Source: a bacterium
Lineage (GTDB): Bacteria; UBA8248
DNA: 64,000 nucleotides
Direction of reading: 5' to 3'
NCBI GenBank assembly: GCA_965207065.1
Contig: OZ242260.1
Coordinates: 1,376,001-1,440,000, forward strand
The position numbers and the translations under genes were made by a program. Under the pieces are notes generated by a model. It was not told where the DNA came from, ran no database searches, and was given only the letters and a program-made list of their open reading frames with translations. Positions 11,685-53,150 of this stretch are shown piece after piece; the first letter of the stretch is position 1, and each line of letters opens with the position of its first letter.

Positions 11685-11724
11685 CGGAAAACCTCCTCAC
11701 CCCCTGTGGAGGATATACGGGATT

Positions 11725-12036: not shown

Positions 12037-12038
12037 GC

Positions 12039-13403: not shown

Positions 13404-13497
13404 GCGAGGCTCCTGAGGTATTTTGACCGGAATATACTCGAAACCTACACGATCGCACCTGCCCGGTAAACGCTGTGAAATACAAGTTCAGCGGCGT

Positions 13498-13935: not shown

Positions 13936-13960
13936 CTTGTCGTTCCTCTCTGGTTTTCGT

Positions 13961-14776
<816 letters not shown>

Positions 14777-14796
14777 GACACTCTCCTATCTGCGCG

Positions 14797-15657: not shown

Positions 15658-15671
15658 AGAAAATTCCTTTC

Positions 15672-17021: not shown

Positions 17022-17070
17022 GATTCGCGATTCTCCTCGACTCGTTTGATACGCGCGCAAATCCCCTCAC

Positions 17071-17107
17071 GCCCATCCGGGAGGATGAACAATCCTTCCG
17101 GATGGGC
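17071..17107. other. Intergenic stem-loop between SBP gene and M20 gene
   Basis: GCCCATCCGGGAGGAT gaaca ATCCTTCCGGATGGGC near-perfect inverted repeat. Confidence 0.6.
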
Positions 17108-23737: not shown

Positions 23738-24305
23738 CGCTGCTCGGCGTATTCGAGGTAGCGAACAATGGCGGTTTGTTCCGGGAGGGGGGCAATATTA
23801 TGCACTTAAGTTGGGTTCCGTAAATGCGCATGACCGTGATGCCTCACCCCATAGTTGCTTTTTGGGCCGCGACCGGACGACAATCCGTTGCATAACCCAA
23901 ATATCGCGCATTGTGCTGATATTTCGGTCGAAGCAAGATAATATCGTCTCCACAGCAAGCGTCGGTTTGCATCAGATTGACCGCAGATTTTCCTATTTCA
24001 TCAATCGTCTCGCCCGATGCAGCAAAAAGAACACCACCAAACTTGATGGGTGTGTAGCCATCGGCTTTCGCTTTTGAGACGAACGATCAACTCTTGAAAA
24101 TGAAGTATGTGCGCATCGTATAGAGGTCTCCATAACGGACGCAAGGAGCCCCCAACGGCACTTCATCTTCCTTATTACCGCCGTTGGTTTTTGAAAGTCT
24201 TCCGATTTGGCATAGTCGACGAACCGCCCAATGCGCCGGCACATCCCCCAACCACGATACCCCGGAGGGTTTGTACATAGAATAGGACTTAAAGTTGGTA
24301 TTTAT
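23738..24305 (-). pseudogene. hsdS: Type I restriction-modification specificity subunit, N-terminal half, degraded
   Basis: YKPSGVSWLGDVPAHW...LPP/PEQTAIVRYLEYAEQRIR. In-frame TGA at 24087 and 23844, a frameshift near 23790, and ATA at the expected start. Confidence 0.85.
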
Positions 24306-24375
24306 GACTTTCCTCCCACTGCTGATACTCCTTATGGGTAATCCCTTTTTCCATATGCATCCTCACCAATTTGTG

Positions 24376-25383
24376 TTATGGCTGGCCATCGCGGATGCTA
24401 TGAAACAATCGCTTAAGACGCACTCCAAGCTGTTTGGGTTGAATTAAGTCGTACTGCGGCTCGTCGAACCACGGGAACCCAACAGAGAGGAACAAAGCTG
24501 TCTTGACTGTCTCTGGGAGTTTCAGTTCGCCGAGAAATTCATCCAATTTTTTGGACATCTCGTCAATGACACCCCGTACGAACTCTTCAAAAGCCCTGGC
24601 TCGGGCAGCCATACCCTCTCGATTGTGCAGTTCTCCATTGATAGTTGCCTCATAAGCGAAAGGATCGCTACCATAACCCCCGTAGAGAGAGGTATGCCGG
24701 GACTCGGCAATCATCTCTAAGAATTCGTCCACTTTCTCTCGTAGAGAGAAAGGCTCTCCAATGGGAAGGGGATTCGCGGAATCCAATTCCTCCAGATACA
24801 AATTAAGCGGGGTTCGTGACTTGTAACGACCACGAAAAAAATGCTGGAATAGGTCCTGAAAACATTGAAGCAGATGAGGGTCGGCATCAAGCAATATCGG
24901 ACGCAACTCTTTCCATCGACTCAGATGCGTGCGCTTTCTCTTTTCGAATATCCAGCTATTGTGGCGTGTCAAACAGCCTATGATAGTGAGCGGTACAGCT
25001 GCGCTCGAGGAGTCCTCGTGAGCCTGCTGGTTGACCCAAACTCGACCAGACAACGCCAACAGGCTTTCAACAACATGATAAGCGGCCGTGTAGAGACTAA
25101 CGACCGTTGGGCCATACAGGTCATCACTAAGCGTTCGCTGTCCGGCAACAAGGAAGTTCGTACTTAACTCCAACCCGCGCAGCGCAGAGCGTAAAGCATA
25201 GAAACCGAAATAATCTGCTTGAGCACACACAATTTGCCCATCGATTTTATCGAAAGAAGGCAAGAAATTGAGTTCACCGGAATTTAACGAGAAACTCAGC
25301 CCCCGCTGACTGATGATGTTCAGCGATTTTCTGATATTCGAAATGATTAGGTCGTTCAACATGACCAAGTCCACCTTGATCAA
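24376..25383 (-). CDS. Hypothetical protein with HEPN-like features
   Basis: 335-aa ORF in AT-richer DNA; LYTAAYHVVESLLAL resembles the HEPN YYAxFH helix; SRHTSLY. Confidence 0.5.
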   Translation of the reverse strand: MIKVDLVMLNDLIISNIRKSLNIISQRGLSFSLNSGELNFLPSFDKIDGQIVCAQADYFGFYALRSALRGLELSTNFLVAGQRTLSDDLYGPTVVSLYTAAYHVVESLLALSGRVWVNQQAHEDSSSAAVPLTIIGCLTRHNSWIFEKRKRTHLSRWKELRPILLDADPHLLQCFQDLFQHFFRGRYKSRTPLNLYLEELDSANPLPIGEPFSLREKVDEFLEMIAESRHTSLYGGYGSDPFAYEATINGELHNREGMAARARAFEEFVRGVIDEMSKKLDEFLGELKLPETVKTALFLSVGFPWFDEPQYDLIQPKQLGVRLKRLFHSIRDGQP

Positions 25384-25405
25384 AACGGGATGTTCTAAGG
25401 TGTGT

Positions 25406-25530
25406 CACCTTGAGGATTCCAAGTGAGCATCAGTTTTCCCAATACCAATAATGCTGGAGATTAATCCCTCTGTCTCATGCTCCACCGCCAGAATGCCCTC
25501 CCGAATCTCCTCCGGCGTTCACATCGGCTT
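25406..25530 (-). pseudogene. hsdM: Type I R-M methyltransferase C-terminal remnant
   Basis: KPM*TPEEIREGILAVEHETEGLISSII resembles the HsdM tail PxRxLEEIxxDILALExETEGLL. Confidence 0.65.
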
Positions 25531-25565
25531 GATTTTCCACTCTTCGCAAGATTCGAAGCAGGCGA

Positions 25566-26747
25566 TCATATGACAGGCTCCGACTCGTTATCGTGGAACA
25601 GATCGATGTAGTTCTGATACCGGAACCTCCGGTGGCGTGTCCGGCCTGTGAATTCATGCAGGATGCCGCAAGCGGCCATCCGGGCGACCAGATTGTTCGC
25701 CGCCGTGTAAGTGGTTCCGGTCAGTTCTTGCACGTCGCTAACCGATACGATCGGGTATTCATAGATATGATCCAGCACCCGGTGGCCGTTGGCGGCGGCG
25801 CGGCCGAAGCCCTCGGTGATAATGTGGCGGTGTTCTTCGCGAAGAGATAGTATCCGCCTCGCCGTATCGGTCGCCTGTCCGCTCACCTCCACGACTCCGC
25901 GCAGGAAAAAGGCGAGCCACCGCTCCCACGTCCCGCTGTCGCGCACCGATTGCAGTTCGTCGTAATACTGCTGCCGGTGCTGATTGAAGAACCAGGACAG
26001 GTAGAGAACCGGTTTCTGCAACACCCCCTGCTCGCATAGCAGAAAGGTGATGAGCAGCCGCCCCACGCGGCCATTGCCATCCAGGAAAGGGTGAATCGTC
26101 TCGAACTGGGCATGGGCGAGTCCGATTTTGACCAGTAAAGGCAACTCCGTATCGGCGTGGATGAATCGCTCCAATCGCGACATGTCCTCCGCGACTTGCT
26201 GGGGTGGAGGCGGAACGAAGAGGGCCTCATGAAGCGTGCAGCCGGCGGGCCCGATCCAGTTCTGGCTGCTCCGCAACTCCCCGGGCATGAGATGAGAACC
26301 CCGCCTGCCTTGGAGAAGTTCGGCGTGAATTTCGCGGATCAGCTGGATCGAAACCGGTATTTCAGGGAGTCTTTTCAGGCCGTGGTTCATGGCCGCGACA
26401 TAGTTCAACACTTCACCTACGTCGCTCGCTCGATTCGGAGCGAATATCTTCGCTTCGGCAGCCAGCAGGTCCTGCAGCGAACTCTGCGTCCCCTCAATCT
26501 GGCTCGACAGCACGGCCTCCTTACGGACGTACATGAGAACGAACAAGTCCGGATGGGGCAGGGTCTGTATCGACCCGTCGAGACGGCCCAGGGCGCGGTC
26601 GGCCTGGGAGAGCAGCACCTGCAACTCTCCGGTAATCTCGACGGGCGGATCGGGCGGTAAGGGCGCCGGAATGAAGGCCCGGTACCCGCCCAACTGTCGA
26701 ATGTACGACCCTGCGCGGGCGGTATGCTCGTTTAAGCGCTCGGTCAT
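25566..26747 (-). CDS. Fic family protein (AMPylase) with N-terminal extension and C-terminal HTH
   Basis: Canonical HPFLDGNGRVGR and the EAVLSSQIEG inhibitory-helix motif. Confidence 0.93.
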   Translation of the reverse strand: MTERLNEHTARAGSYIRQLGGYRAFIPAPLPPDPPVEITGELQVLLSQADRALGRLDGSIQTLPHPDLFVLMYVRKEAVLSSQIEGTQSSLQDLLAAEAKIFAPNRASDVGEVLNYVAAMNHGLKRLPEIPVSIQLIREIHAELLQGRRGSHLMPGELRSSQNWIGPAGCTLHEALFVPPPPQQVAEDMSRLERFIHADTELPLLVKIGLAHAQFETIHPFLDGNGRVGRLLITFLLCEQGVLQKPVLYLSWFFNQHRQQYYDELQSVRDSGTWERWLAFFLRGVVEVSGQATDTARRILSLREEHRHIITEGFGRAAANGHRVLDHIYEYPIVSVSDVQELTGTTYTAANNLVARMAACGILHEFTGRTRHRRFRYQNYIDLFHDNESEPVI

Positions 26748-38043: not shown

Positions 38044-38295
38044 ATGAGAAGTGGCGATGAAATGTTGAAACAGATTGTCGATAAGTCCGCCTTGGACGCA
38101 GATTTCAGGCAACAGCTGCTCGCAGACCCGAAATCGACCATCAGTCAGGAATTGGGCATCACGATCCCTGATTCGATGAATGTCGTGGTCCATGAGAGCG
38201 ACATGGAGACGGTGCATCTTGCGTTGCCCCCGGATCCGCATATCACCGAGGAGCAACTCGAAGCCGTCTCGGCCGGGCTTTGCTGCTGCTGGTAA
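38044..38295 (+). CDS. srpE: NHLP-leader (proteusin) RiPP precursor, core LCCCW
   Basis: DADFRQQLLADPK...HLALPP...ITEEQLEAVSAG|LCCCW; AG double-glycine-type cleavage site. Confidence 0.92.
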   Translation: MRSGDEMLKQIVDKSALDADFRQQLLADPKSTISQELGITIPDSMNVVVHESDMETVHLALPPDPHITEEQLEAVSAGLCCCW

Positions 38296-38418: not shown

Positions 38419-39537
38419 TTATATGGAGACCGCTCCGGAAAGCACCATGAACACATAGGCCTTGGCCTGCTTCAACTGATTTTCGGATATGACCAGCTTG
38501 ATGTGGTGAATGCCCCGCAGCAGTACGAATTGTCCGGTTTTGGCGAACAGCGTCGTCGGTTTCGATACCCAGTCGGCAAGCGCCTCGATCTTCTCCGGAA
38601 CGACAAGTTCCTCATGTCCCAGGGCTTCCAGAAACGGGTCCCAATCGGTCAGGCCGTCGAGCCAGTAACGTGAATCTTTCGTATATCTCTGCTTGACGAT
38701 GAGCGTCAGGCCGAGCGTCGGACCGACACCCTCTTCGCGCACGTCGAGGTTCGCTCCGGTTCTCACAATTTCCGCGCGTTCCTGGAAGCGTGAAATCAAA
38801 GCGTCTACGGCCGAGAGCCGACCCGGCCAGCCGATGTTCTCGAGATACGAACAGATTTCCCCCTGCGATTTGAAGCCCATGATCGCCAGGCGGATTGTGC
38901 GTTCACGGGACGGGAATACCCCGAACGAATCCAGGCGCGTGTCTTCGGGCTGCGCCAGGTAAACCCGTTCGGCGTTTTTCCGTTCAGCGGCGCTCTTTTC
39001 CCAGCCGACGGCGGAGACGAGGGCGTCAACCACGATCCCGACATCATTCTGGAGGCCGTCGCCACCGGACAGCGTGCGCTCACCGGGCCGCAGGAAGATT
39101 CCCGGCAGCGAATTATCACTGCCCGGCGCCGAACCTACGTCATACTCCAGCATCAATTTACGTCCCACGATCTCTCGCAGAGGCGAGTCCTGGGCTTCCA
39201 TTTCCCTGAACAGCCGCCTGACCGCTCTCGCGGTCTCATCCGTCTCGTCGGTCCGCGCCAGTTCTTCGAAAAAATCGCCCGAGCGGTTTCCGCTCGCCAG
39301 CGAGACGCCGAAATCCGCCACCGGCCGGCCCTCATGCAGAGGCAGCTCGAAACCGAACGGCTGGGCGCCCATGGTGATGGGAAGCCCGCTCGCGAGTTCG
39401 AGTATGCGTCCCCATTCCCGCTCTCCGATAAGAGTCGGAGAAATCCTGCTTCGAAATTGCCCGAGCAAATCTCCCATGGTGCCGCCCTCTTCGGCGAGGC
39501 GGTCCTGGGTAAGCGCGACTGCTTCGTCGATATCCAT
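38419..39537 (-). CDS. Hypothetical RiPP maturase, putative ABBA-type aromatic prenyltransferase
   Basis: FGFELPL..ADF, MLEYDV, SRERTIRL, NLDV, HHIKL...AKAY pattern; last gene of the maturase operon. Function inferred. Confidence 0.5.
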   Translation of the reverse strand: MDIDEAVALTQDRLAEEGGTMGDLLGQFRSRISPTLIGEREWGRILELASGLPITMGAQPFGFELPLHEGRPVADFGVSLASGNRSGDFFEELARTDETDETARAVRRLFREMEAQDSPLREIVGRKLMLEYDVGSAPGSDNSLPGIFLRPGERTLSGGDGLQNDVGIVVDALVSAVGWEKSAAERKNAERVYLAQPEDTRLDSFGVFPSRERTIRLAIMGFKSQGEICSYLENIGWPGRLSAVDALISRFQERAEIVRTGANLDVREEGVGPTLGLTLIVKQRYTKDSRYWLDGLTDWDPFLEALGHEELVVPEKIEALADWVSKPTTLFAKTGQFVLLRGIHHIKLVISENQLKQAKAYVFMVLSGAVSI

Positions 39538-39546
39538 GTTGCCTCC

Positions 39547-41865
39547 TTACGCGATTACAGGCGCGGGGTTCAAATCGGCTTCGGCCAGGGGGTGCTTGCG
39601 GCGGCCCATGTCGAGGGGTGCGTCGTACAGGCGCCCGGGCGCGAATCTCGCCCAGAAATGGCGCATGCCCGGTACGATGACCCGCGCAACCGGCATGCCG
39701 ATGTCCGGCCGGGTCTGGTCCAGCACGAGGAACTCCATGCCCTTGGCTTCCACCAGCGCCCGGCAATGTTCCACATCCTCAAGAGTGTCCGCAGTTTCGA
39801 TCTCCGGATACTCCGGGCCTTGCCTGAGCGGCGCGTCCGGCGTCGGCGACAGCCAGGAACAATCGGCGATTCGAGCCGTCTTCCACCAGTTGAGCGCCAG
39901 CGGATCGTCGATCATGGGCCGGCCGTCGCCCCCTCCGGGACGCGGCAGCCAGGTAAGGCACTGGTTCAACTCGCAAACCGCGCGCAGGGCCGCCAGCCGC
40001 GGGTCGGCATGCGCGCCGGCGCCGTATATGATGTCCTCGGTTTCCGCGTCTAGTCTGCGCGAGAGCGCGACGAACGCGGGAATGCCGATGTCGGAAGTAA
40101 CGTCGAGCATCCACACTTCCCGCTCGTAGCGGGCGTAATAATCCGCGGCCGACGCAAGGAATTCGTCGTCGAAGCTGAGAAGATCAACCCCGGGCGCTCT
40201 CAGTTCGTTGTACCACCAGATGGCGAACGCATCGCGCTCGACCAGTTCATAGAAGCCTTGCAGGATGGCCTCCTCCAGGGTGTTCCCTGCGGCGCAGCCG
40301 TTGGAGTCGGCGATCAGTTCGGCGTCTCCGCGCTGTTCGGCGGACATGCTGTAGAGCATCGACGTCGGCAGATAGCGGTGCCGCCGCTGCGTGAACGACC
40401 ACACCGGGGTCCAGTCGATTTCGGCACCGGGTTCGAGACGCGGCGGGACGATGTTGTACGGGTGGCCTTTCGCGTTGATGCTTTCCGCGTTGTCTAGCTG
40501 GTCCTCGCTGAACAGCTGCGCATCGTTGGGATGGATCGCCCCGTCTTCCGCGGCGAAGTCGATGAACCGCTTGCGGATGCGGATCTCGTCTCCGCAACAG
40601 GCGCCCGAATAACGCTCGATCGCCTCGCAGAGGGCGCTGGCCTCGGATTGCGCCCGCGTGCTGCCCTTGCCGGCGCTCTTGCTGCGGAGGCTGCGCCTGA
40701 GCGAACTCAGGCTCCGGCTTCTCATGGCGGGATTGCTTCCGGCCCAGTAGACGTGCAGCCAGGAGTCGCTCTCATCGGTCGTGCGCGCCAGCCAGGTGAC
40801 GACGCCGCTGATCGGGCTTACCAGGTGGCGGTATTTCGCCAGTGTGGCTTCCGGCGTCACGGCCCGCGCGCCGCCGCTGTTGCGATGGACTTTGGGGCTC
40901 GCACTCAGACTCAGCGGCGCCGGCGGTCGATCCGGCCGGTAGAGCGCCTCGTCGCCACAGGCCGCACACTGCGGGCGGCGCATCACCGAATGATGCGAGC
41001 TTGCGAACGTGGCGACATTCATCGCAATCGCCTTATCGTGAATCGGGGCCGCATCGTCCAGCACCAGCCATTTGACGATCTCCGCCGCGACCAGGCCGTA
41101 CAGCGCCTCCAGCACCGCGGGCTCGGCGGCGAACGGCTTGAAGGCGGCTTCCTCACCGACAAAGCTGCGCAGGAAGTTGTGGGTCTCCTTATGGCAGCGC
41201 AGGCGGTAGGCCAGGCACTCCCGGCAGGGTCCTTGCTCATCCGCGCGGAAGACGGGGCCGAACAGCGCCTCCATGCCGCGCGGCCGCACCAGCATCCACG
41301 GCGCTCCCGCCTCGAGCCGGCGCCGATTCACGTCGGCAAGCCGTGCGTCGAGATAGTCGTCGCAGACGACAACCGTGAGCCGGGGGTCGCCGCTCGCCAC
41401 ACCGGCGCCGATTTCTGCCAGGCGCCGGGCGAGGCGGCCGTCGTCGCCTTCGACCGCGACCCGCGACTCCGCCAGCCGCCCTTCGGCCCAGCGGGGCGAT
41501 GCGCCGAGCGAGGCCCAGTAGGCCGCCCGGGGTCGGTCCATGCCGTGATCGGCGGAGACGACATAGCCCCTGGCGGAGAGCGAAACCACGGCCGCGAGAA
41601 CGTCGGCGGCGGCATGGCGGCCCTCGAGGGCGGCGGCAATCCCGGCCAGCGGGCGCCGGCCGCCCAGAAGCGGCAGCAGAGCGGGATACAGGCCGCCGTG
41701 CAGCAGCGTATCGAACGACTCGGACACCAGCAGGGTCTGCCCTTCGCCGATTTCGTGGAACTGCAGGTGCGGGGTGAGCGCGGGGAACTCGACGAGGCCC
41801 TGGTCCGCCGGGGTCGTTTTGGTCAATATCCCGCGTCGGGGAGTCGTCTTGGTCTGTGGTGACAT
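39547..41865 (-). CDS. srpC: Fused leader-binding/E1-like + YcaO cyclodehydratase (TOMM type)
   Basis: GPVF..GPCRECL, RRPQCAACG, SAGKG, EAIERY, SNGCAAG, ELVERDA, Pro-rich C-terminus LNPAPV. Confidence 0.93.
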   Translation of the reverse strand: MSPQTKTTPRRGILTKTTPADQGLVEFPALTPHLQFHEIGEGQTLLVSESFDTLLHGGLYPALLPLLGGRRPLAGIAAALEGRHAAADVLAAVVSLSARGYVVSADHGMDRPRAAYWASLGASPRWAEGRLAESRVAVEGDDGRLARRLAEIGAGVASGDPRLTVVVCDDYLDARLADVNRRRLEAGAPWMLVRPRGMEALFGPVFRADEQGPCRECLAYRLRCHKETHNFLRSFVGEEAAFKPFAAEPAVLEALYGLVAAEIVKWLVLDDAAPIHDKAIAMNVATFASSHHSVMRRPQCAACGDEALYRPDRPPAPLSLSASPKVHRNSGGARAVTPEATLAKYRHLVSPISGVVTWLARTTDESDSWLHVYWAGSNPAMRSRSLSSLRRSLRSKSAGKGSTRAQSEASALCEAIERYSGACCGDEIRIRKRFIDFAAEDGAIHPNDAQLFSEDQLDNAESINAKGHPYNIVPPRLEPGAEIDWTPVWSFTQRRHRYLPTSMLYSMSAEQRGDAELIADSNGCAAGNTLEEAILQGFYELVERDAFAIWWYNELRAPGVDLLSFDDEFLASAADYYARYEREVWMLDVTSDIGIPAFVALSRRLDAETEDIIYGAGAHADPRLAALRAVCELNQCLTWLPRPGGGDGRPMIDDPLALNWWKTARIADCSWLSPTPDAPLRQGPEYPEIETADTLEDVEHCRALVEAKGMEFLVLDQTRPDIGMPVARVIVPGMRHFWARFAPGRLYDAPLDMGRRKHPLAEADLNPAPVIA

Positions 41866-41898
41866 GCGGGAATCCTGCGTCTGCCCGGTCGGCGCTTT

Positions 41899-44261
41899 TT
41901 ATGCGCGCGAAACGAGCGTATCGATCCGGGCGGCGGCGCTGGATGCGGTCTCGGCGACCGCCGACGCCAGCGCATCGAAATCCTCCTGACCGCAAGCGTC
42001 CGCAAGGAGTGATTTGACCTTCGGCCCTGCCGCCGCCGCGTCGAATCCCTCTTCGCCGACAAGACGCATGACCCCCTGTAAGTCCCGCCACATGGCCGCG
42101 GCTTGCGCCAGCGGCTCGGCGCCGGATCGTCGAGGCCGTTTCCGGCGCGCGTCAACTGCAGGTAGCGCGCGGCCCTCTCGACATCGTCCAGCCCGCCGCG
42201 CATCCGGGCGTATGCGGGCACGCCCGTTTCGGCGGGGTCTTCGGTCCGCTCGCTCAACCGGGCGAGCAAGGATTCGTCCGCGGCGCATTCGGCCAGTATC
42301 CGGCGCCGCGCCTCCTCGTAGCGGCCGGCGACATCGGAACCGCCATACTCGAAGGCGCAACGCGCCCTGGTGAGAGCGGGAACCTCACCTGAAGTCGAAT
42401 TTCCGGAATGCCCGGCCAGCTCGGAAAGCGGCAGCGCAAGAATGGTATTCGAGCCGGGCGGGACCGGGGAGAACAACAGGCTGTCCTGCGACAGGTCGGA
42501 CAGAGCCTCTTGGAAACTACGGCACACCTGCTCGTTTTTGCCGGACCGCAGGCCGTCGTGGAGGATCAGCATATCGATTCCGACGCCGGGATATGCTTCG
42601 CGGCTGGCCAGATCGCCCAGGAGAACGGCGGCGACTCCATCCACGCTCAGCATCCCGAAGCGGTCGACATAATCCGCGACCACGGAGGCGAGCACGGTCG
42701 AGATCGACGCTTCGGCGAGATTCGAGAGCGCCGTTCTCGCTTCCGCCGGCAACAGGTTACCGCGCATCACGTGCATACCGATCTGAAACGCCTTGTCGTT
42801 CGACCAGTTTCGCACGATTTCAGCGGTTTCCCTCGCATCGGCCACCGGCAGTTCGGCGACCAGACCCTTCAATTCCCCAACGTCCATCTCGTAAGTCCAG
42901 TAGACTCTCGCCAGCCCGCGCCGCGCTATCGATTCGTATTCCTCATCCGGCCCGAACCCTTTCGGCAGGTCGAGGTCGAGGAATTCCTGGTCCTGCAGGT
43001 TGTCCAGAAGTTCCGGGTTCCGCTCAATCCGTTTCGCAAGCCTCGGGGCGGCGCCGAAGATTTCGAGTATCGCGTCGAATGCGTCGGGCCGCGCCGCGGC
43101 GATCGGGCTGTCGTAGGGGCCCCAGTCGTCAATCTCCGGATAGAAATGCTTGCGCCACTGGTCCACCAGCGGGTCCATCTTCTCGAACCAGCGCTTGGGC
43201 CGCAGCACGATGTTCATCATGTCGGCGTAGGTTCCCGGCAACTCCGGCGACTCATCGAGGCCGCTGACCTGCAGCAGCGGATACTGGCGCGACGCCACCG
43301 CATGATGGTCCGCATGGCGCTGCATATTGAAAAACATCCAGTTGCTGAACTTCCAGTCGGCGCTCCAGGAATGGCGCGGCATCGCCTTTTCCCAGCGGCC
43401 GTTGTCCAGACGGACCCGGCGCAGGCCGTAGTGTTGAAAGTAGTTGCTCATCTTCATCGAAAAGACGCAGGACAGACCGAGGAAGACGAAGACGGGAACG
43501 GCCCAGATTCCGCCCATCCAGTAAACCAGTCCGTACCAGAACGCGACGCCGACGCCGTAGCGCCAGAACGGATTGTCGTAATGCCACATGGGCAAACGCC
43601 GCCGCGCCAGGCGTTCTCTTGCGACTTCCCAGGAATGGACGAGGTTGCTGACGACTTCCTTGGGGAAATATTTCCAGAAACTTTCCCCCTTCGGAGCGGA
43701 ACCCACGTCATACGGCGTGCCGACCAGGGCATGGTGAATATAGACGTGTTCCGTGGCGTATTGCGGATAGGAGACGGTGGCGAGCAGGAATTCGCCCACC
43801 CGGCGCTCCCAGGTCGTGCGCCGGTGAATCATTTCGTGGCCGACTACGAATACGGCTTGCGCTTCCATCGTCAGGATGATCGCCAGGAGCACGCCTTCCC
43901 AGATGGAGAATTGATCCGCCGCCAGGATTTGCCACATACCGAAAATGAGCGTCGGCGGCCACAGAAACGACCACGACCAGACCGGCAGATTGTGCCAGAA
44001 CAGGCGGTGCTCCGACGTATTCGCCGGGTCCATGTTTTGTCCGTCCCGACCCAGCGCCCTATCGAGCGACCCCGCAACACTCATAAAGACGAGCGGCGGC
44101 AGCAACCACCAGCCTCCATTGTACACGCCGAGAAGAATCAGCGGAAAAACAACCAGTGGCAGATAATGCGGAAGGGCGGTCAGAATGGAAGGCTCGATAG
44201 GCCGAGTGGCGTCAGCGTTGCCTGGGCCGGAGCCACCACTTGCAACCGGACTTTGTGGCAT
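41899..44261 (-). CDS. AlkB-like membrane diiron monooxygenase/desaturase fused to degenerate GlnE-like domain; frameshift near 42120
   Basis: HEMIHR, EHVYIHH, NYFQHYG, QRHADHH His boxes. C-terminal LLGDLASRE..DMLILHD and RGGLDDVERAARYLQL. The tail continues in the frame of ORF 41899-42360. Confidence 0.8.
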
Positions 44262-44343: not shown

Positions 44344-45645
44344 TCAGGCTTTCAGGATTGCGAGGAGACGCTCGAGGGCTTCGATGCAGAACGCGGTTGT
44401 CACGGCTTCGGAGCCATGTCCAATCCGCCCTACCGTGCCCCACTTCAGGGTTTGGTCGCCGAACGCGAGGAGTTCGGGCCAGCTGCCGTCCTCGCGTTGC
44501 GAACCCGTGAACCTTTCCACCTCGCGTTTCGCGTCGATTCTATCGAGGCATCCGACATGGTGGAGCGCCGAGGCGGCCTGAGCCGATTGAAGGATGTTGC
44601 CGAACCCCCCCTCCTCGTCCCGCAAGCCCAGGATGCGCTCCGCAAGTACCGGGCGCAGCCGGTCGAGGGCGGGCCGTGCGCGATTCACGGCGCGGGCGGT
44701 CGCATAGCAGATAGCGACCTCGTCGGGATACCATTTCGACGACCCCTCGAGATTGCCTTCGGTTATCAAGGCTTCCAGCCATCGCCGGGCATCCCTGGTT
44801 TCTGGGCAGTCGCCGAGATAGGCGATGACGTTCGCATTGACCACGGGGTCGGCTTCGATACGGAAGCGCGATACGACATCGGGTTCGTCGTCTTCGAGAA
44901 CCCAGGTCATGAAGCGGCCTTCCTCGTCGCGATTCGCCAGTATCTGCGGAACGTTCCGCCCCATCAGAATCCAGGGGTGGCCTCCAATCACGAGTGAACA
45001 CAGCGCGGTGCTGTCGAGATCCTGGGGCAGATGGCGGTAATAGCGCCACAATCCGGGATATTCGATGGTTTCGGCGAGATACGCCTCGGTCGCGGCGCAG
45101 ATGGCCCTGGCGCGCGCTTCCTCGCAACATTCCAGGGCGAGGACGCAGAAAGCCGATACGAAAGGAGGTTTCTCGAAATGCCGCGGTATGTCCGGGTCGC
45201 CTACGTTGAACCGGATGCAGCGCCAGGCGCCGTTTTCGTCTATGGCGGATTCCAGGAAATCGAGACCGCGGCGGATGCTTTCCCTGCCCGCTTTCGCAAG
45301 CGCTTCGGTGGTCGCCGCGCTCTTCGGGACTCTCTCCCCTTGAAGTTTTGGAGGACGAAGGGGCGGCGCGGGGTCGTGCATCGTTTTGCGAAGAAACTCG
45401 ATCGATGCCGCGCCGGTTTTCGCCTCCTCCCGTTCCGCCTCGGTGAATTTGCTGCGCGGCGGGAGGACGAGGTGCGTCGCGGTGTAGGTTTCTTCGTGCA
45501 CGTGAATCTCATGGTCTTCGGCCATCGTAACGCCCAATTCCGCTTCGATGGTCTCTTTGGGCCTGGCGAGAAGACGTTCTCTAAAGTCGTAGTCGCCGCC
45601 GGCTCGCGATATCAGGAAATCGGCAGCGTCAAAGGGCTTCTTCAT
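44344..45645 (-). CDS. NHLP-leader-like domain fused to class II terpene cyclase / prenyltransferase-squalene-oxidase-repeat domain
   Basis: N-terminal DYDFRERLLARPKETIEAELG...HLVLPP...FTEAERE; then DENGAW, PQDLDSTA (DxDDTA-like), DPVVNANV, QREDGSW. Confidence 0.75.
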   Translation of the reverse strand: MKKPFDAADFLISRAGGDYDFRERLLARPKETIEAELGVTMAEDHEIHVHEETYTATHLVLPPRSKFTEAEREEAKTGAASIEFLRKTMHDPAPPLRPPKLQGERVPKSAATTEALAKAGRESIRRGLDFLESAIDENGAWRCIRFNVGDPDIPRHFEKPPFVSAFCVLALECCEEARARAICAATEAYLAETIEYPGLWRYYRHLPQDLDSTALCSLVIGGHPWILMGRNVPQILANRDEEGRFMTWVLEDDEPDVVSRFRIEADPVVNANVIAYLGDCPETRDARRWLEALITEGNLEGSSKWYPDEVAICYATARAVNRARPALDRLRPVLAERILGLRDEEGGFGNILQSAQAASALHHVGCLDRIDAKREVERFTGSQREDGSWPELLAFGDQTLKWGTVGRIGHGSEAVTTAFCIEALERLLAILKA

Positions 45646-45719
45646 GGATGTCTTCTCCATTTTCGCGGGCCTTGGCCGAACGTGCATTTTACCGCCGGGC
45701 TGCTGTCTGCATATTCTGG

Positions 45720-48662
45720 TCAGGCGATTTGCCTTTTGATCAACTCCTTGAATACCCCGTCGACCTCCTTGAGTTCGTTGAAGGTACCGCTTTGAACGAC
45801 TTTTCCGCCTTGCAGCACGTAGATGCGGTCGGCCTGTTCCAGCGTGGACAGGCGGTGGGCGATGATGAGCCGGGTGGAAGTCAGGTCGGCAAGGTTCCGC
45901 ATTACCTTGGCCTGGCTTTCGTTGTCCAGCCAGTTCGTCGCCTCGTCAAGCAGCATGATTCGCGGGCTGCCGATCACCGAGCGGGCGATCGTGATGCGCT
46001 GACTCTCGCCGCCCGAGAGGACGGACCCGCTGGCGCCCACCATCGTCATCATGCCCATGGGCATGTCCCTGATTTGGGCTTCGACTTCGGCGGTCCGGGT
46101 CGCCGCCCACACTTCCTCGGTCCCCACCGCATCATGGTGGCTGACCAGATTGTCCCAGAGATCTTGTGGATGGAGTCCAACGGATTGCGGCACCGCTCCA
46201 ATTTTCCGGCGCACCTGTTTCAGATTCAGGTGCCTCAGGTCGCGTCCGTCGTAATACACCGCACCGGCGGCCGGCCAGTCGATGCCGAGCGCGAGCCGGA
46301 ACAGGGTGCTCTTGCCGGCGCCGGACTCACCGGCAATCGCGATGAATTCGCCGGGACGGGCGTGAATCGTGACGTCGTCGAGGATCAACGGACCGTCGGG
46401 ATCGTAGCGGAAGGAAATGCGGTCGAACAGTATTTCACCGCCCAGGAATTCAACCGGCTCTCCTTCCGTCACGGTTTCAGGAACGGCGGAGAGAAGCGGG
46501 CGCATCTGCTCGAACGCCGGCCGCATGGCGGCAATGGCGCCGAAGGACTCGCCGAGCCGGGCGATGGCGGACTGGAAAACGATAAAGACCGTGTAAACGA
46601 CGAGAAAATCGCCGACCGGTATGTCCCGGTCTCCCGTCGCCGCCACCGCGAAAAGCAGAACCCCGCCGGCAAAAAAGGGAAGCGCGGCGCCGAATGCCCG
46701 CGAATGTCCCTCAAGCGCGCCCAGTTCAATCTCTGCGCGTTTCTGCTCGCGATAATCCCTCGCCCAGATGGCATAGGCCGACCCTTCCGCATTATCCATT
46801 CGCAGCTTGGAGATGCCTCCCACGAGCTGGAACAGCCGACCGGCTACACGCCGCGCCGCGCTGATCATCCGCCCATAAGGTGAAATCTGGCGCAACCCGA
46901 GGACTACGGCGACCAGCAGCGAAGCCAGGCTGAAGACGAGGGTGATGAGGCCGAGGGTGGCGTCGTAGAAGAAAATGACGCCAAAAACCGGAAGCAGAAA
47001 AATAATCGACAAAAAGCTGTTGGCGACGATTCCCCGCAAGCCGTCGCGAAGGTTCTGGAACGTCATCCCCGACATTGCCAGATCTCCGGCGGGATGGCGG
47101 TGCAGAATGCTTGACGGAAGGCGCATGAGACGGTCCCAGAAGGCGGCTTCGACCCGGGAAGCCGAGCGCCCCTCGAGCCGCATCATCGCCGTGCTTTGGA
47201 ACAGTTGCAGGAGAGCGCCGAGCAGACCGAACGCCGCTAACGCCACGGCGACGGTATAGAGCGTTCCTGTGCTTCCGCCCGCTAAAATTTCATTCGCAAC
47301 GAATCCGAGCGCGAGCGCCGGCAGCAGCTTGATCATGCCGTATGGAAGCCCGGCAATGACCAGACGCGCCAAATCCGCGGCCGACCCGCGCAGGGCGATT
47401 CTTAGCAGGTCTGCCAGTTTCACGTTCTCCGGCGGCAATGGCCGATAGAACATCCAGGCTTCTCCCTCCAGCGCGCCCGCGCGGTCCGCCGTGACCCGGC
47501 GGCTGCGTTTGCTGACCGGGTCGATTTCCCGGTATCGCCCGAACATTCCCGGCAACAGCGCCACTGGCTGGCCGTCCTCGGCGCGGAACGCCAGCATCGC
47601 GTTGCTGTCGCCGCGCCACCAGCTGCCCTCGGCTTTGAACCGCACGCGCCGGGCGCGTAAGCCCGACGCATCGAGAACCTCGACGAGGCCGACCGGAGAA
47701 TCGGAAAGTCCCGCACGCGCCGGAATCTTGAAATCGATTCCTTCATGGCGGCCGATGAGTTGCAGGGCATCCGCCAGCGCCGTGTCCTCGACACTGGCGT
47801 CCCGGTCGATCGGAAGGTCATAGATGTTGAACAGCCGCTGCCGCGCGGCTTTTTCCGCCGTGCGGCGGCTGGTAGTCCGCGCGCGTTCGAGATTGACGTC
47901 ATCGACCACGACCAGTCGGCGGTTCAGGCGTTCCAGGGAAAAAGCAACCGCGTGAAAAGAGGCGAGCGCCGGCAGCAGCGTGCCTTGCTCCGCCAGGGTT
48001 TCGGTTGATAAGCCCGTCAGCGTCGCTTCGTCGAACAAGGCGAGCCAGCTTGTGCGCGTCAGCGGAATAACGGCGTCGTGCGGGCCGCTCGCCTCCGCCA
48101 GTTCCGCCGGGTCGACGATACCCATGAACAGGCTCGCGCCGCGCGGCGGTTCGGATACCCATACCACGCCGCGCCGTACGGATAGCGTACAAGGGGCCAG
48201 GGTCTGCGTCCGACCGGGTTCGGCCAGCGCGGTCGGGCGCGGAAGGGGGCTTGCGAAACGGGACAGTGTTTCAGCAATGGCGATCAGCCAGGTATCGGTC
48301 TGTTCCGCCAGTTCCGCCGGATGGACCCGGGACAGCAGGGAAGCCGGCAGACGTTTCAAAATGGTGCCCGGCAGTCCTTTGGCGATGATGCTGAGCGTAT
48401 TGTCTTCGTCACCCTCTCGCTGGTCCGGCGACACGCCCGGCAGCAGCCAGCCCGACTCCCGGCGCAGCAGATGCTGCGGCGCCGCCTGCTCCACCCCGTC
48501 CTTGAGTTCGGCGAGGAACAGATTGACGGCGCCCTGATCGATGAACCAGACGCTGTCCGGGTCGTCGAGCTTGACCGGCAGGTTGCCGGCGCAGGGTACG
48601 GACGCGCCGAAGCGAGCGGCGAGTTCGGCGATGGACGTGTATTCCGGCTTTGTGTGCTGCAT
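45720..48662 (-). CDS. NHLP bacteriocin export ABC transporter permease/ATPase
   Basis: LDASGLRARRV, GESGAGKST, LSGGESQR, LDEAT, IAHRLST. Confidence 0.9.
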   Translation of the reverse strand: MQHTKPEYTSIAELAARFGASVPCAGNLPVKLDDPDSVWFIDQGAVNLFLAELKDGVEQAAPQHLLRRESGWLLPGVSPDQREGDEDNTLSIIAKGLPGTILKRLPASLLSRVHPAELAEQTDTWLIAIAETLSRFASPLPRPTALAEPGRTQTLAPCTLSVRRGVVWVSEPPRGASLFMGIVDPAELAEASGPHDAVIPLTRTSWLALFDEATLTGLSTETLAEQGTLLPALASFHAVAFSLERLNRRLVVVDDVNLERARTTSRRTAEKAARQRLFNIYDLPIDRDASVEDTALADALQLIGRHEGIDFKIPARAGLSDSPVGLVEVLDASGLRARRVRFKAEGSWWRGDSNAMLAFRAEDGQPVALLPGMFGRYREIDPVSKRSRRVTADRAGALEGEAWMFYRPLPPENVKLADLLRIALRGSAADLARLVIAGLPYGMIKLLPALALGFVANEILAGGSTGTLYTVAVALAAFGLLGALLQLFQSTAMMRLEGRSASRVEAAFWDRLMRLPSSILHRHPAGDLAMSGMTFQNLRDGLRGIVANSFLSIIFLLPVFGVIFFYDATLGLITLVFSLASLLVAVVLGLRQISPYGRMISAARRVAGRLFQLVGGISKLRMDNAEGSAYAIWARDYREQKRAEIELGALEGHSRAFGAALPFFAGGVLLFAVAATGDRDIPVGDFLVVYTVFIVFQSAIARLGESFGAIAAMRPAFEQMRPLLSAVPETVTEGEPVEFLGGEILFDRISFRYDPDGPLILDDVTIHARPGEFIAIAGESGAGKSTLFRLALGIDWPAAGAVYYDGRDLRHLNLKQVRRKIGAVPQSVGLHPQDLWDNLVSHHDAVGTEEVWAATRTAEVEAQIRDMPMGMMTMVGASGSVLSGGESQRITIARSVIGSPRIMLLDEATNWLDNESQAKVMRNLADLTSTRLIIAHRLSTLEQADRIYVLQGGKVVQSGTFNELKEVDGVFKELIKRQIA

Positions 48663-50872
48663 CAGCCCGACCTGACCAGCTTGTAGTACGCACCGTCCCG
48701 ATCCGCGATCAACTCGTCGTGGGTGCCGCGTTGCACGGTGACGCCTTTGTCGAGCACGATAATTTCATCGCAATCCCGCACGGTGCTCAGCCGGTGCGCC
48801 ACGATCAGGCAGGTGACGCCGCGCCGCCGCAGGGCTTCATCGACTAGTTCCTCCGTTACGGCATCGAGTGCGCTGGTGGCCTCGTCCAGAATGAGCACCG
48901 TCGGATTGCCCACCAGCGCACGGGCGATTTCCAGGCGTTGCTGCTGGCCGCCGCTGAAATTCGCGCCGCCTTCTTCGACGAGGGTCGAGTACCCTTGCGT
49001 TCGAAGCAGGATTTCGTCATGGATTTGGGCATCCCGTGTGGCGGCGAAGAGGACTTCATCCGGGACGGCCGGGTTCCACAACGTGATGTTGTCGCGCAGG
49101 GACGCGGAAAAGAGCACGATCTCCTGGTCCACCATGGATATGGACTGCCGCAGCACTTCCTCTGGAATCTGATCCCGCAGATGATCATCAAACAGGATTT
49201 CGCCCGACCAGGGCGGATAGACACCCGATACCAGCCGCGCCAGTGTCGACTTGCCGGAACCGCTTGGACCGACCACGGCAACGCGCTGCCCCGGCTTGAT
49301 CACGAGGTTGAAGTCCTTTATCAAAGGTGGCCGGCTCTTGTTGAAACCGAAGGTGAGGTTTCGCAGTTCGAGCTGGCCTGCAAGCTGGAGCCGACCGTTG
49401 AACGTGGGGATTGACTCCGGTTCCGGATTTCGGCGACTGAAAACGGGGTCTTCATCGGTTTTGGAGATGTCCTCGAGACGTTGCATATCGGTTTCGAGCG
49501 CCTGGCGGTTTTCGGCAAACTCCAAAAAACGCCTGACGGGGGCCAGAAACATCTCGGCCAGGATGTAGAACCCGACCAGCGTCCCCAGGGTCATTTCTCC
49601 GGTCATGACCAAACCGCCCCCGATGCCGAGAATCGCCGCGCTGCGGAGCGCGTCGACCAGCCCCGGAAGCGAGGTGCTGATGGAGCCCAGTTCGGAATAG
49701 AGCTGGCGCGCACGCAACTCACGCGCCTGTTGACCGCTCCAGCGCGAAAAGAAACGGTCATCCGATCCCGTCATGCGCAGATTGTCGGAATGACTCAGCA
49801 TCTGCATGCCGAGGCCGATCAGCAGTCCCTGCTCGCGCCTCATCGCCTGGCTTCGGACAGCCCGAAGGGCGTTGAGAAAGTGGGCTAGCATTCCGTGCAG
49901 AAGGGCCAGCAAAAGCACGATCAGCGTGAGCAGGATATCGTAGGCGAACATCGCCATGAGCAACACCACGCTCATCGCCATGTCGATAATGAGAACCAGA
50001 AACTGGTCCGCCAGATTCCTGGCGATTCTGTCGGTGGACGAGACCCGGTCGGTCAGGTCGCCCGCCAGTCTGTGTTCGAAAAACTCCACCGGCAACCGCA
50101 GCAGACGTGACACGCTGCGACTGAAGCCAATCACCGATACCCGGACGGCGAGCCGCTTGAGGAATCGGTGCTTGAACAGGGACAGGACGTATACCAGGAG
50201 GCCGCCGCCGAGCAAGGCGGTCACCAATCCGCCCCAGGATCCGTGTTTTTCGATGACATCGTCGACGAAAACACCGAGAGATGCGGGAATAATCAACGTC
50301 AATAGCGTCAGCATGAGTCCGCAGGCAATCACCCCGGTAAGCAAATTCCATGATCCGGCGAGCAGGGCGCCCAATTGCCTGAACAAGTCGGGCCGCTCGC
50401 CCCCGGGCTTGAAATCAGCGCCGCGCTTGAAGCGAAGCGCAATGCCGCTGTAGTCCTTGTAGAACTCTTCGGCGGAAATCCTGCGCCGCCCCGTGGAAGG
50501 GTCATTGAGATGGAAATGACGGCCATCGAATCCATCGAGGACGACGAAATGGCTGAATTGCCAGAACAGAATCAAAGGCAACTGCAGCATTTTCAGTTGA
50601 TCGGCGCGTGCGCTGAGCCCGCTGCATTCGAGGCCATAGTGTCGGGAGGCGCGCAAGATGCTTGCGGCGCTGCTGCCGTCCCGGCTCACCTCGCATTTTT
50701 CGCGCAATTCGGTAAGCGGCACCCATCGCCCGAAGTAGGCCAGTACGATGCCGAGACAGGCGGCGCCGCATTCCGACGCGTGCATCTGCAACAGAATCGG
50801 TGTGGTCACCTTCCGTTTCGATACGTCCGAAGAGGCCTTGTCCCCGGCGTCTTTGGAAGCGGCCGTCGGCAT
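48662..50872 (-). CDS. NHLP bacteriocin export ABC transporter with C39 peptidase domain
   Basis: QMHASECGAACL, HFVV, LNDP catalytic motifs; GPSGSGKST, FSGGQQQR. Confidence 0.93.
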   Translation of the reverse strand: MPTAASKDAGDKASSDVSKRKVTTPILLQMHASECGAACLGIVLAYFGRWVPLTELREKCEVSRDGSSAASILRASRHYGLECSGLSARADQLKMLQLPLILFWQFSHFVVLDGFDGRHFHLNDPSTGRRRISAEEFYKDYSGIALRFKRGADFKPGGERPDLFRQLGALLAGSWNLLTGVIACGLMLTLLTLIIPASLGVFVDDVIEKHGSWGGLVTALLGGGLLVYVLSLFKHRFLKRLAVRVSVIGFSRSVSRLLRLPVEFFEHRLAGDLTDRVSSTDRIARNLADQFLVLIIDMAMSVVLLMAMFAYDILLTLIVLLLALLHGMLAHFLNALRAVRSQAMRREQGLLIGLGMQMLSHSDNLRMTGSDDRFFSRWSGQQARELRARQLYSELGSISTSLPGLVDALRSAAILGIGGGLVMTGEMTLGTLVGFYILAEMFLAPVRRFLEFAENRQALETDMQRLEDISKTDEDPVFSRRNPEPESIPTFNGRLQLAGQLELRNLTFGFNKSRPPLIKDFNLVIKPGQRVAVVGPSGSGKSTLARLVSGVYPPWSGEILFDDHLRDQIPEEVLRQSISMVDQEIVLFSASLRDNITLWNPAVPDEVLFAATRDAQIHDEILLRTQGYSTLVEEGGANFSGGQQQRLEIARALVGNPTVLILDEATSALDAVTEELVDEALRRRGVTCLIVAHRLSTVRDCDEIIVLDKGVTVQRGTHDELIADRDGAYYKLVRSG

Positions 50873-50873
50873 C

Positions 50874-51425
50874 TTATGATCGCCTCATTCGAAACAGCGT
50901 GATCGGAGATTGCCTGCCGAGCTCGATGACGAACCGGCATTTCCTGCCCTTCAGGGAATCCGAATCCACACTTTCTTCGAGCGCGATATCGACGCGGAGC
51001 AGGGACACCGGCGCCGCGGACTCAAACGCCGCCTGCCCCCCGGAGAAAGGCACGGCGGAAATCGCCCTGACCTTTCCGGCAAGCGCGCCTGTTTTTCCGT
51101 CCGCCGTATCCGGCTCTATCACCACCGGCATCCCGGCCTCGATACGTGGAGCGATATCGCTGTCGACCCAGACGAGGGCCCGCACGGACCGGCCGCCCCC
51201 GGGCGAGTTTTCGCCTTGCTCGACCACTACGCCGTCCACCGCGAGACTACGGGCCACGCTGCCAAAGAAGAGCCATGCACAGAGGATGCACAGAACAAGA
51301 GCGATTGCGGCGACAAGCAGACGCTCCCGCGGCGTTGAAATCGTCAGCAACCGGTCGAGTTGCTCGCGTTCTTCCTTCGCTTCGGCGACAATATTATGAA
51401 AAGAATCGAATGGATTATTGAACAC
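50874..51425 (-). CDS. Short NHLP secretion (HlyD-like) accessory protein
   Basis: EQLDRLLTISTPRE + TM helix, C-terminal QSPITL; much shorter than a typical membrane fusion protein. Confidence 0.65.
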   Translation of the reverse strand: MFNNPFDSFHNIVAEAKEEREQLDRLLTISTPRERLLVAAIALVLCILCAWLFFGSVARSLAVDGVVVEQGENSPGGGRSVRALVWVDSDIAPRIEAGMPVVIEPDTADGKTGALAGKVRAISAVPFSGGQAAFESAAPVSLLRVDIALEESVDSDSLKGRKCRFVIELGRQSPITLFRMRRS

Positions 51426-51857: not shown

Positions 51858-53150
51858 CTAGCAGCTCAGCCCCTGGGACATCTGGCAATAACTGGAGAGA
51901 GGGAAAAACGCCAACGTCCGATTCCAGTCCGATTTGTCAATGACCGACTGGTTCATCAGTTCGATCATTTCGTCGAATTTGCGGAGCGCGTCGCAATCCA
52001 CCACCTCGGGATCCACCACCTTGCGGTGTCGAGGCCAGGCGTTGTCTCGAGCGTGGCGCCAGAATCCGCTGTCGTATCTGGAGCCACAGGAATAGTGCCA
52101 ACCGACGAATAAGCCGAAGCAGAGCATGGTATTGGTGAGGAATCGATTGACCACCAGAGCATCGCGTTCGAGATATTCTACCGAACGGTTAAGGCGTAAA
52201 TGGAGAACCATCCCGACCTCTACCTGTGCGGATACGATCGCCGTTGCTTCGAGGGGTTCCATGAAGGCGGCTGCGTTGCCGATGCGAGCCACCGCGCCAT
52301 CGTACATGTGACGATGGATAAAATTGGGAAACGGAATGACGGCGCGCTGCTCGAACTCCGATACGCCATCGGTCTCGAGGAAAGCGTCGAAATCCGATTC
52401 GACTTCGTCGAGGCCGGATACGTCGCGGTTGAAGATGTACCCGTAGGATGTGTGCGCTGTAAGCGGAATAACGACTATCCAACCGTGCGGACGCGCAACC
52501 GCGCGGGTATAGGTAGGTTGCAGAAACGGGCCGTCCTGCTCTTTTTTGACGATTGCAGGGCAGCGGCGGATGACGGCCGTATTCGTGGGGATGAAAGAGA
52601 GGTCGATGTGCCGGTCCGGGTCTAGTTCTGCGGGAAAGCCCCGGGCATCAAAGACCAAATCGTAGCGTTCCGCCGGCCGGCCCTCGAATTCCACTTGCGC
52701 GCCGCCTTCCACCCTGGTGATACCGGTTACTTTCGCGTCGATGCGGCTCGCGCGCGTGCTTTCATGCAGCAGGTCCGCCATCAAGTCGACGGACAGATGG
52801 TAGGCGTAGGACACCTGTTGCGGCGTGAAATAGTGGGTGAAGTCGCGATTGCGCCGACCCCATCCCTCGAATGTTACACCGTACTTGCGCGTTCCTTTCA
52901 GGCGCTGCTGGACTGTTTCATGGGGAAGATTCGTAAGTTGACACAAATCCTGCACGAGACTCGGCCAGCTGCCTTCGCCTACTCCGAGGGCCGGGATGCG
53001 CGAATCATAGATGTGATGCAGCTCGTGGTCGCTCTCGGGTAGAAGACGAGTCACATTGGCGGCCGCAAGGGACCCTGCGGTTCCCCGCCCGACAACCGCG
53101 ATCTTCCGTAATGATTTAGCGCCCGGCTGTATCATCCTACTCACTTTCAC
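51858..53150 (-). CDS. srpI: Flavin-dependent tryptophan halogenase family protein (peptidyl-Trp brominase-like)
   Basis: VVGRGTAG, GVGEGS, TRKYGVTFEGW (catalytic Lys), GWIVVIPL, IGNAAAFMEPLEATAI. Confidence 0.85.
   Translation of the reverse strand: MKVSRMIQPGAKSLRKIAVVGRGTAGSLAAANVTRLLPESDHELHHIYDSRIPALGVGEGSWPSLVQDLCQLTNLPHETVQQRLKGTRKYGVTFEGWGRRNRDFTHYFTPQQVSYAYHLSVDLMADLLHESTRASRIDAKVTGITRVEGGAQVEFEGRPAERYDLVFDARGFPAELDPDRHIDLSFIPTNTAVIRRCPAIVKKEQDGPFLQPTYTRAVARPHGWIVVIPLTAHTSYGYIFNRDVSGLDEVESDFDAFLETDGVSEFEQRAVIPFPNFIHRHMYDGAVARIGNAAAFMEPLEATAIVSAQVEVGMVLHLRLNRSVEYLERDALVVNRFLTNTMLCFGLFVGWHYSCGSRYDSGFWRHARDNAWPRHRKVVDPEVVDCDALRKFDEMIELMNQSVIDKSDWNRTLAFFPLSSYCQMSQGLSC

Follow-up and report, generated by a model that had tools for sequence, protein, structure and literature searches.

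The window analysed here, a stretch of 64,000 nucleotides from bacterial contig OZ242260.1 (positions 1,376,001 to 1,440,000), carries on its minus strand a gene in which an AlkB-type membrane di-iron domain is fused to a GlnE-like adenylyltransferase (AT) half that is devoid of its catalytic carboxylates. The gene lies in an operon for a peptide that is synthesized ribosomally and modified post-translationally (RiPP), namely the srp cluster of sponge proteusins. It is a conserved core member of this cluster in many sponge-associated bacteria. With a probability of roughly 40%, we propose that the fusion performs a leader-guided, membrane-bound oxidation of a lipophilic modified core peptide, probably a hydroxylation, and that the dead GlnE half would act as a cytosolic docking domain. 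The fusion gene is laid out in the window as follows.

41899..44261, minus strand: AlkB / GlnE-AT-like fusion gene, disrupted, consisting of frame A and frame B, with its stop codon at 41899-41901
42114-44261, minus strand: frame A, residues 1-716, which match homologues
41902-42126, minus strand: frame B, which matches homologue residues 724-798
42116-42123, minus strand: deletion junction, the sole surviving copy of the 8-bp repeat GGCGCCGA
43122..44189, minus strand: AlkB-type membrane di-iron domain, about residues 25-380
43824-43838, minus strand: histidine box HEMIH, starting at residue 142
43731-43751, minus strand: histidine box EHVYIHH, in which HVYIHH starts at residue 172
43425-43445, minus strand: histidine box NYFQHYG, residues 273-279
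43302-43319, minus strand: histidine box RHADHH, in which HADHH starts at residue 316
42114..43097, minus strand: GlnE AT-half homologue, its frame-A part, residues 389-716
42597-42617, minus strand: degenerate nucleotide motif GDLASRE, residues 549-555
42573-42587, minus strand: GVGID, residues 559-563

Domains were sought in Pfam and NCBIfam, AlphaFold2 (AF2) models were compared with known structures by Foldseek, and PDB sequences were searched with phmmer. The N-terminal domain belongs to FA_desaturase (PF00487), matched at residues 121-329 with E=4.4e-26 and 92.6 bits against a cut-off of 29.7. In the PDB, residues 51-377 find 8f6t, the AlkB-AlkG protein of Fontimonas, at E=2.3e-45 and 8sbb at 1.8e-34, and Foldseek also reaches 8f6t from the AF2 model (E=6e-9). 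An earlier note on this DNA, drawn from the letters alone, had reported an AlkB-type enzyme with all of its histidine boxes, including the unusual NYFQHYG, and the family at large agrees. In an alignment of 88 sequences, made of 77 srp-type fusions and 11 divergent fusions (29-50% identical), H142, H146, H172, H176, H177, H277, H316, H319 and H320 are invariant in 88/88; one locus, L006, was excluded from the alignments as a duplicate of L004. These nine histidines correspond to the metal ligands of AlkB, of which cryo-EM work on that enzyme reportedly counts nine. The AlkB half is probably still catalytic, because the nine metal-binding histidines are retained. The glutamate of the usual NYxEHYG box, which 8f6t carries, is a glutamine in 77/77 srp-type fusions, while the 11 divergent fusions have glutamine in 8 and glutamate in 3. 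Six long helices are placed by AF2, at low pLDDT, at residues 26-47, 51-70, 84-113, 120-145, 232-250 and 254-278, and a hydropathy scan of the fusion gives three strong hydrophobic regions. The nearest relatives that are not fused to GlnE are AlkB-rubredoxin fusions of 486-511 aa (PF00301+PF00487). Judging by domain order, the GlnE-like module occupies the C-terminal position that is held by the fused rubredoxin in the closest stand-alone AlkBs.

The C-terminal half had been likened to the adenylyltransferase domain of GlnE, and it does match GlnE profiles. When 20 fusion C-terminal domains were compared with 17 bona fide GlnE proteins by hhalign, the two profiles aligned over 384 columns, at GlnE positions 573-987, with a probability of 100% and E=1.9e-47. 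Pfam finds GlnE (PF03710) at residues 397-569 (E=7.6e-6, 25.9 bits against a cut-off of 24), and the second NCBIfam match of the fusion maps to positions 636-728 of the 986-position GlnE model, that is, to its C-terminal half. PF08335 is detected in divergent fusions. Searched against 1.84 billion representative proteins, window residues 381-716 retrieve genuine GlnE proteins, about 930-1015 aa long, at approximately 1e-13 to 1e-8. This half of the AF2 model is confident (pLDDT 85-95), and Foldseek matches it to 1v4a (TMt 0.65, E=9e-9), 3k7d (TMt 0.54, E=1.1e-8) and the GlnE-like AMPylase DrrA, 6yx5 (E=4.3e-4).

The catalytic erosion that was read from GDLASRE and VGID is equally real, as both motifs are present and the GlnE carboxylates are lost across the srp-type fusions. 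GKLG(S/G)RE and SDLDL of bona fide GlnE have become GDLASRE and G-I-D, and the strand with the third aspartate (VDxR in GlnE) is shortened, replaced or deleted in all aligned fusions. The first aspartate position is acidic in 8/77 srp-type sequences; the second is acidic in 60/77 and is N, R, K, G, S or H in the other 17. By homology, the module is a complete GlnE AT half without the carboxylates for nucleotidyl transfer and, as these are lost, nucleotidyl transfer by the standard mechanism is not conserved. It is very improbable that the module is an enzyme all the same, using alternative residues to AMPylate or nucleotidylate the precursor SrpE, the cyclodehydratase SrpC or the AlkB domain. 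The entire AT half is kept over its 384 columns, the second acidic position holds D or E in most srp-type sequences and in 11/11 divergent fusions, and some of the latter retain both acidic positions, such as the ELD of P0130 and P0148, all of which would suit a working enzyme. The srp clade itself speaks otherwise, through its rarely acidic first position, its 17 replaced second positions and the lost third-aspartate strand. The nucleotidyltransferase (NTase) core is, moreover, the least conserved part of the protein apart from the C-terminal helices, with a mean column identity of 0.69, against 0.85 for the first helical part (385-535) and 0.89 for the AlkB core.

Close relatives of the degenerate module are also fused at the C-terminus of RND (AcrB-type) transporters. 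Five such proteins are P0184 and P0209 (1521-1525 aa), P0169, P0174 and P0188, with E=3.9e-20 or lower for four of the five and 1.3e-12 for P0209. To judge from these domain arrangements, the GlnE-like module seems to have been attached repeatedly to membrane proteins, on their cytoplasmic side. There are also divergent subfamilies of AlkB-GlnE fusions (P0275/P0283 and P0276/P0294, with 30-68% identity to P0172), and two different divergent fusions can share one contig of about 4.2-4.4 Mb.

The operon around the fusion is, on its gene content, the published srp sponge proteusin cluster, because a SrpE precursor with the core LCCCW, a YcaO enzyme equivalent to SrpC, a halogenase equivalent to SrpI and a C39-ABC exporter share the locus. 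The original description of srp, which stands for sponge-derived RiPP proteusin, is reportedly that of Nguyen et al. (J Am Chem Soc 2021). The minus-strand order is halogenase, 183-aa protein, C39-ABC, ABC2, P0122, fusion, YcaO and P0123, and the genes are the following.

51858..53150, minus strand: flavin-dependent Trp halogenase, SrpI equivalent (Pfam Trp_halogenase, E=6.5e-44)
50874..51425, minus strand: 183-aa HlyD-N-terminal-like protein, covering positions 6-57 of the 421-position NHLP-system HlyD model
48662-50872, minus strand: C39-peptidase ABC exporter (Pfam, NCBIfam)
45720-48662, minus strand: NHLM ABC2 exporter (Pfam, NCBIfam)
44344..45687, minus strand: P0122, an NHLP-leader-like domain with a squalene-hopene-cyclase/prenyltransferase-repeat-like domain, directly upstream of the fusion
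39547..41865, minus strand: fused leader-binding/E1-like and YcaO cyclodehydratase, SrpC equivalent (YcaO E=4.7e-91; TIGR03604, TIGR03882)
38419..39537, minus strand: P0123, ABBA-fold aromatic-prenyltransferase-like protein (AF2 and Foldseek)
38044..38295, plus strand: SrpE precursor of 83 aa with an NHLP-type leader, an ITEEQL motif and the C-terminal core LCCCW, convergent with the operon

The 183-aa protein keeps its size among relatives, and is therefore a short protein and not a gene fragment. P0122 matches TIGR03793 at residues 25-84 in NCBIfam, and its first 90 residues or so are 34-41% identical to SrpE leaders. Its C-terminal part has a weak match to PF13243 (E=0.002, below the cut-off) and an Atlas lead score of 0.92. 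The leader-like domain of P0122 might permit docking at the sites used by the precursor. This 447-aa open reading frame (ORF), 44344-45687, was also considered as the precursor gene and rejected, the true precursor being the 83-aa gene on the opposite strand. P0123 has no match in Pfam or NCBIfam. Its AF2 model has a pLDDT of 92.9 and gives 58 PDB matches in Foldseek at E<=0.001; all of those listed are ABBA aromatic prenyltransferases at a moderate TM of 0.4-0.55, among them Orf2/NphB, EpzP, AmbP1/3 and DMATS enzymes, and the Atlas lead agrees. With an ABBA prenyltransferase fold encoded in the cluster, the cryptic srp product may therefore be prenylated. Along the window, GC content is 0.51 at 24001-26000, otherwise 0.57-0.68 up to about 56 kb, and 0.51-0.52 beyond 60 kb.

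Relatives of the fusion are numerous, with more than 900 among 8000 scored candidates at E<=0.001. In the genome scan, the best 80 of 184 were fetched as loci, all 80 of which are metagenome-assembled genomes (MAGs), and gene co-occurrence was counted in them at a homologue threshold of at least 45% identity. The fusion was thought to sit inside a RiPP operon and might have proved common elsewhere; all 80 fetched loci are srp-type. A YcaO homologue lies on the same strand as the fusion in 80/80, and in 79/80 it is adjacent, starting -36 to +153 bp from the fusion stop, usually at 33 bp. A P0123-like gene occurs in 71/80 loci and a P0122-like gene in 65/80, in 64 of them directly upstream of the fusion. 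ABC2 follows with 62/80, C39-ABC with 57/80, the 183-aa protein with 48/80 and the halogenase with 41/80. SrpE is found near the fusion in 61/80 loci, the core being LCCCW 61 times and LSCCW once (L006). These SrpE counts cover the flanks around each fusion locus, and many absent neighbour genes reflect contig ends. A crude search of the loci without SrpE gave no convincing Cys-rich precursor-like ORF. A simple gene caller based on GC content at third codon positions (GC3) chose wrong strands in some loci, and only L056 was annotated from its calls. L004 and L006 lie about 2 Mb apart on the same contig, so that one MAG holds two srp clusters, and their fusion proteins have the same match to P0002.

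Together, the fusion and its cluster are found across at least six named phyla of MAGs. In a quick FastTree phylogeny of 77 fusions and the window protein, the latter groups with MAGs that are unclassified ('bacterium') and with two from Nitrospinota, at a support of 100. The Acidobacteriota sequences make up a single clade nested within Pseudomonadota, and those of Paracoccaceae are spread over three places. Such branching would be consistent with a small number of transfers and vertical descent thereafter.

A point that the earlier note did not report is that the interval 41899..44261 holds two frames. The longest ORF, 41823..44261 on the minus strand, encodes P0001 of 812 aa. Its last 96 residues are out of frame, Arg-rich and without any match, and the ORF runs into the beginning of the YcaO gene. 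Homologues measure about 798 aa, and their similarity to P0001 stops at residue 716. DNA alignment shows that 34 bp missing from the window gene are present in all 9 of the closest loci, where they are flanked by two copies of GGCGCCGA; their absence shifts the frame after residue 716. The lesion is a microhomology deletion, neither a homopolymer slip nor a recoding site. Programmed frameshifting was ruled out, since the deletion is absent from 9/9 aligned relatives. In 79/80 related loci, one uninterrupted frame of 734-825 codons makes up the fusion gene, and the intact protein is predicted to be about 798 aa. What is lost or shifted in the window corresponds to four well-predicted helices of the AF2 model (717-797), including the conserved W736, R737 and G741. 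The remaining srp genes of the window align with their relatives from end to end. Elsewhere, in the alphaproteobacterial MAG of locus L041, an insertion of about 5.4 kb (11626-17086) splits the fusion gene and brings with it a rve/Mu-type transposase and TniB-like AAA ATPases, so that the fusion gene was inactivated independently a second time. As the window gene is broken, an intact homologue is needed for experiments.

Part of the srp chemistry has been published. SrpE bears the core LCCCW, SrpC forms three thiazolines and SrpI is the brominase for the C-terminal Trp, according to passages of PMC10858898 and PMC10286304; the same passages present only the YcaO and halogenase steps as reconstituted so far, and those of PMC10286304 add that SrpC alone performs poorly in E. 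coli. Within this pathway, the leader-guided oxidation that we favour would proceed in five steps. SrpE would be made, and its three cysteines would be cyclized by the YcaO enzyme encoded just downstream of the fusion. The thiazolines, a 6-bromo-Trp and probably a prenyl group added by P0123 would render the core lipophilic. The dead GlnE module would then serve as an anchor on the cytoplasmic side of the membrane, either for the folded NHLP leader or for the YcaO enzyme, and the lipophilic core, or a prenyl or Leu side chain, would enter the AlkB channel to be oxidized with O2. The most likely reaction would be a C-H hydroxylation (+16 Da) of a prenyl or Leu methyl, with electrons supplied by a general rubredoxin or ferredoxin encoded elsewhere. 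Hydroxylation is judged the most likely outcome because the domain is AlkB proper. We infer that a prenylated, brominated tris-thiazoline pentapeptide could be a lipophilic substrate of the kind that an AlkB-type enzyme takes from the membrane. The module proposed to dock is descended from GlnE, which naturally acts on a protein substrate.

Six observations weigh against this proposal. Co-expression gave thiazolines and bromination without the fusion gene, as passages of PMC10286304 report, and the fusion is therefore not needed for those steps. Barring an assembly artefact, the window copy has probably lost its activity, because the missing 34 bp remove the last 82 or so residues of a predicted helical subdomain. 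In five loci (L050, L052, L055, L056 and L057), SrpE, P0122-like and P0123-like genes were undetected and only the fusion and YcaO were found. These are Rhodospirillales-type loci; in L056 the 10 kb on each side hold unrelated neighbours, including a cupin, an anthrone-oxygenase-like protein and an MMPL transporter, and L053, a sixth locus of the same clade, has the full srp set in a different order. The exchange of Glu for Gln in NYxEHYG may signal a chemistry other than classical hydroxylation. The AlkB half is too poorly modelled (pLDDT 30-65) for an active site, the channel geometry or the GlnE module's placement with respect to the di-iron site to be read from it. Finally, no gene for a rubredoxin-like redox partner turned up in the window or the 80 loci, when all six frames were scanned for CxxCG...CPxC, which we take to be a rubredoxin-like signature. 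The scan had no match in the window, as the earlier note had said of the neighbourhood, and its sole match lies inside a 408-aa ORF of L004.

It is also conceivable, albeit unlikely, that the AlkB domain is the azoline oxidase that the cluster otherwise lacks. It would convert thiazolines to thiazoles (-2 Da each) in place of a SagB/McbC dehydrogenase dependent on flavin mononucleotide (FMN), and the GlnE module would tether the AlkB domain to the YcaO enzyme. The gene order lends itself to this, as the adjacent fusion-YcaO pair is the only invariant module of the 80 loci and the sole srp part detected in five of them. No nitroreductase or SagB-type domain occurs among 18 neighbouring ORFs that were scanned, every cluster ORF included. 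The protein falls in the desaturase/hydroxylase superfamily PF00487, the invariant Glu-to-Gln change beside a metal-binding histidine could shift its reactivity, and the missing reductant gene would presumably be a lesser problem if the substrate supplied the electrons. The closest relatives, however, are AlkB hydroxylases and not desaturases, no link between AlkB and RiPPs was found in literature searches, and we know of no AlkB-type enzyme that aromatizes a heterocycle. In addition, passages of PMC10858898 give the tris-thiazoline form as the physiological substrate of the brominase.

A further explanation, which we regard as quite improbable, removes the peptide from the reaction altogether. 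The fusion would act on a membrane lipid or hydrocarbon, for example in self-protection or in envelope remodelling linked to export, and the dead GlnE half would regulate it as a sensor of nucleotides or proteins. Small hydrophobic molecules are the usual substrates of AlkB, and the presence of the module on RND transporters implies that it accompanies membrane proteins that do not modify peptides. L056, where an MMPL/RND gene is nearby and no precursor is in view, fits the same idea, and the conservation of GDLASRE (D550 in 76/77 and A552 in 77/77) could still permit nucleotide binding. Yet the fusion has a strict place in what resembles an operon with small intergenic gaps, flanked by the NHLP-toroid gene and the YcaO gene, and it has been co-inherited with the cluster across at least six named phyla.

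The architecture is new for a characterized enzyme class, and the srp cluster that carries it is already known. The earlier note had not recognized this domain arrangement from characterized enzymes, and this stands for the fusion itself: no AlkB-GlnE fusion or AlkB-type RiPP enzyme is described in the literature searched, which omits most subscription papers. It does not stand for the surroundings, as the cluster is a published biosynthetic gene cluster, and the fusion gene must consequently have been seen before, though no description of it was found. PMC9426513, PMC11832590 and 10.64898/2026.08.03.742642 contain no relevant mention of a desaturase, alkane or adenylyltransferase, and PMC10858898 and 10.1101/2023.06.09.544420 none of a desaturase. 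In the srp literature passages covered, the fusion, P0122 and P0123 are undescribed, and those of PMC11832590 label the other genes of the cluster 'of unknown function'. Tentatively, the fusion may be the first AlkB-type membrane di-iron enzyme to serve as a leader-guided RiPP tailoring enzyme, with a GlnE-AT pseudo-enzyme docking the folded NHLP leader, and may supply a missing step toward the cryptic product.

Few biosynthetic loci of sponge microbiomes are as widespread or as strongly transcribed as the srp cluster. It is highly transcribed across many phyla in sponges, and its final product and ecological role are still cryptic, according to passages of 10.1101/2023.06.09.544420. Three of its remaining conserved genes can now be read as an AlkB oxygenase with a dead GlnE-AT half, an ABBA-fold prenyltransferase and an NHLP-fused cyclase-like toroid, and the missing chemistry that they predict is a prenylation followed by a membrane-bound oxidation. 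Should the leader prove to be bound by the GlnE module, this would add a new type of domain to those that recognize RiPP precursors, one in which a protein-modifying enzyme has been turned into a binding module.

Among known systems, the AlkB-AlkG protein of Fontimonas thermophila (8f6t, 8sbb) shares its membrane di-iron domain with the fusion, at about 30% identity over some 320 residues and with the nine histidines kept. Each protein carries a further domain attached at the same place at its C-terminus, the AlkG rubredoxin there and a dead GlnE-AT half here. Unlike AlkB, the fusion has no redox partner gene nearby, has Gln for the Glu of NYxEHYG, and is placed in a RiPP operon instead of an alkane-degradation operon. 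With the GlnE of E. coli (AT half, 3k7d; N-terminal half, 1v4a), the homology extends over the helical lead-in, the NTase core and the PF08335-like helical end. GlnE is a soluble protein of about 950 aa with two tandem NTase halves, whereas the fusion has one half attached to a membrane enzyme, and its catalytic carboxylates and the Lys and Gly of the nucleotide motif are replaced. The FMN azoline dehydrogenases SagB/McbC, of azole RiPPs or thiazole/oxazole-modified microcins (TOMM), have a cyclodehydratase as partner, and the fusion may, to judge from gene order, hold the same place in its pathway. The two have no relationship in sequence or fold, one being a membrane protein with a di-iron site and the other soluble with FMN. 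With other srp clusters, the window shares the NHLP precursor SrpE with its LCCCW core, SrpC, the Trp-6-brominase SrpI and the two ABC exporters, as well as the spread over many phyla of sponge-associated MAGs, and the only difference at the level of the cluster is the frameshift of the window copy.

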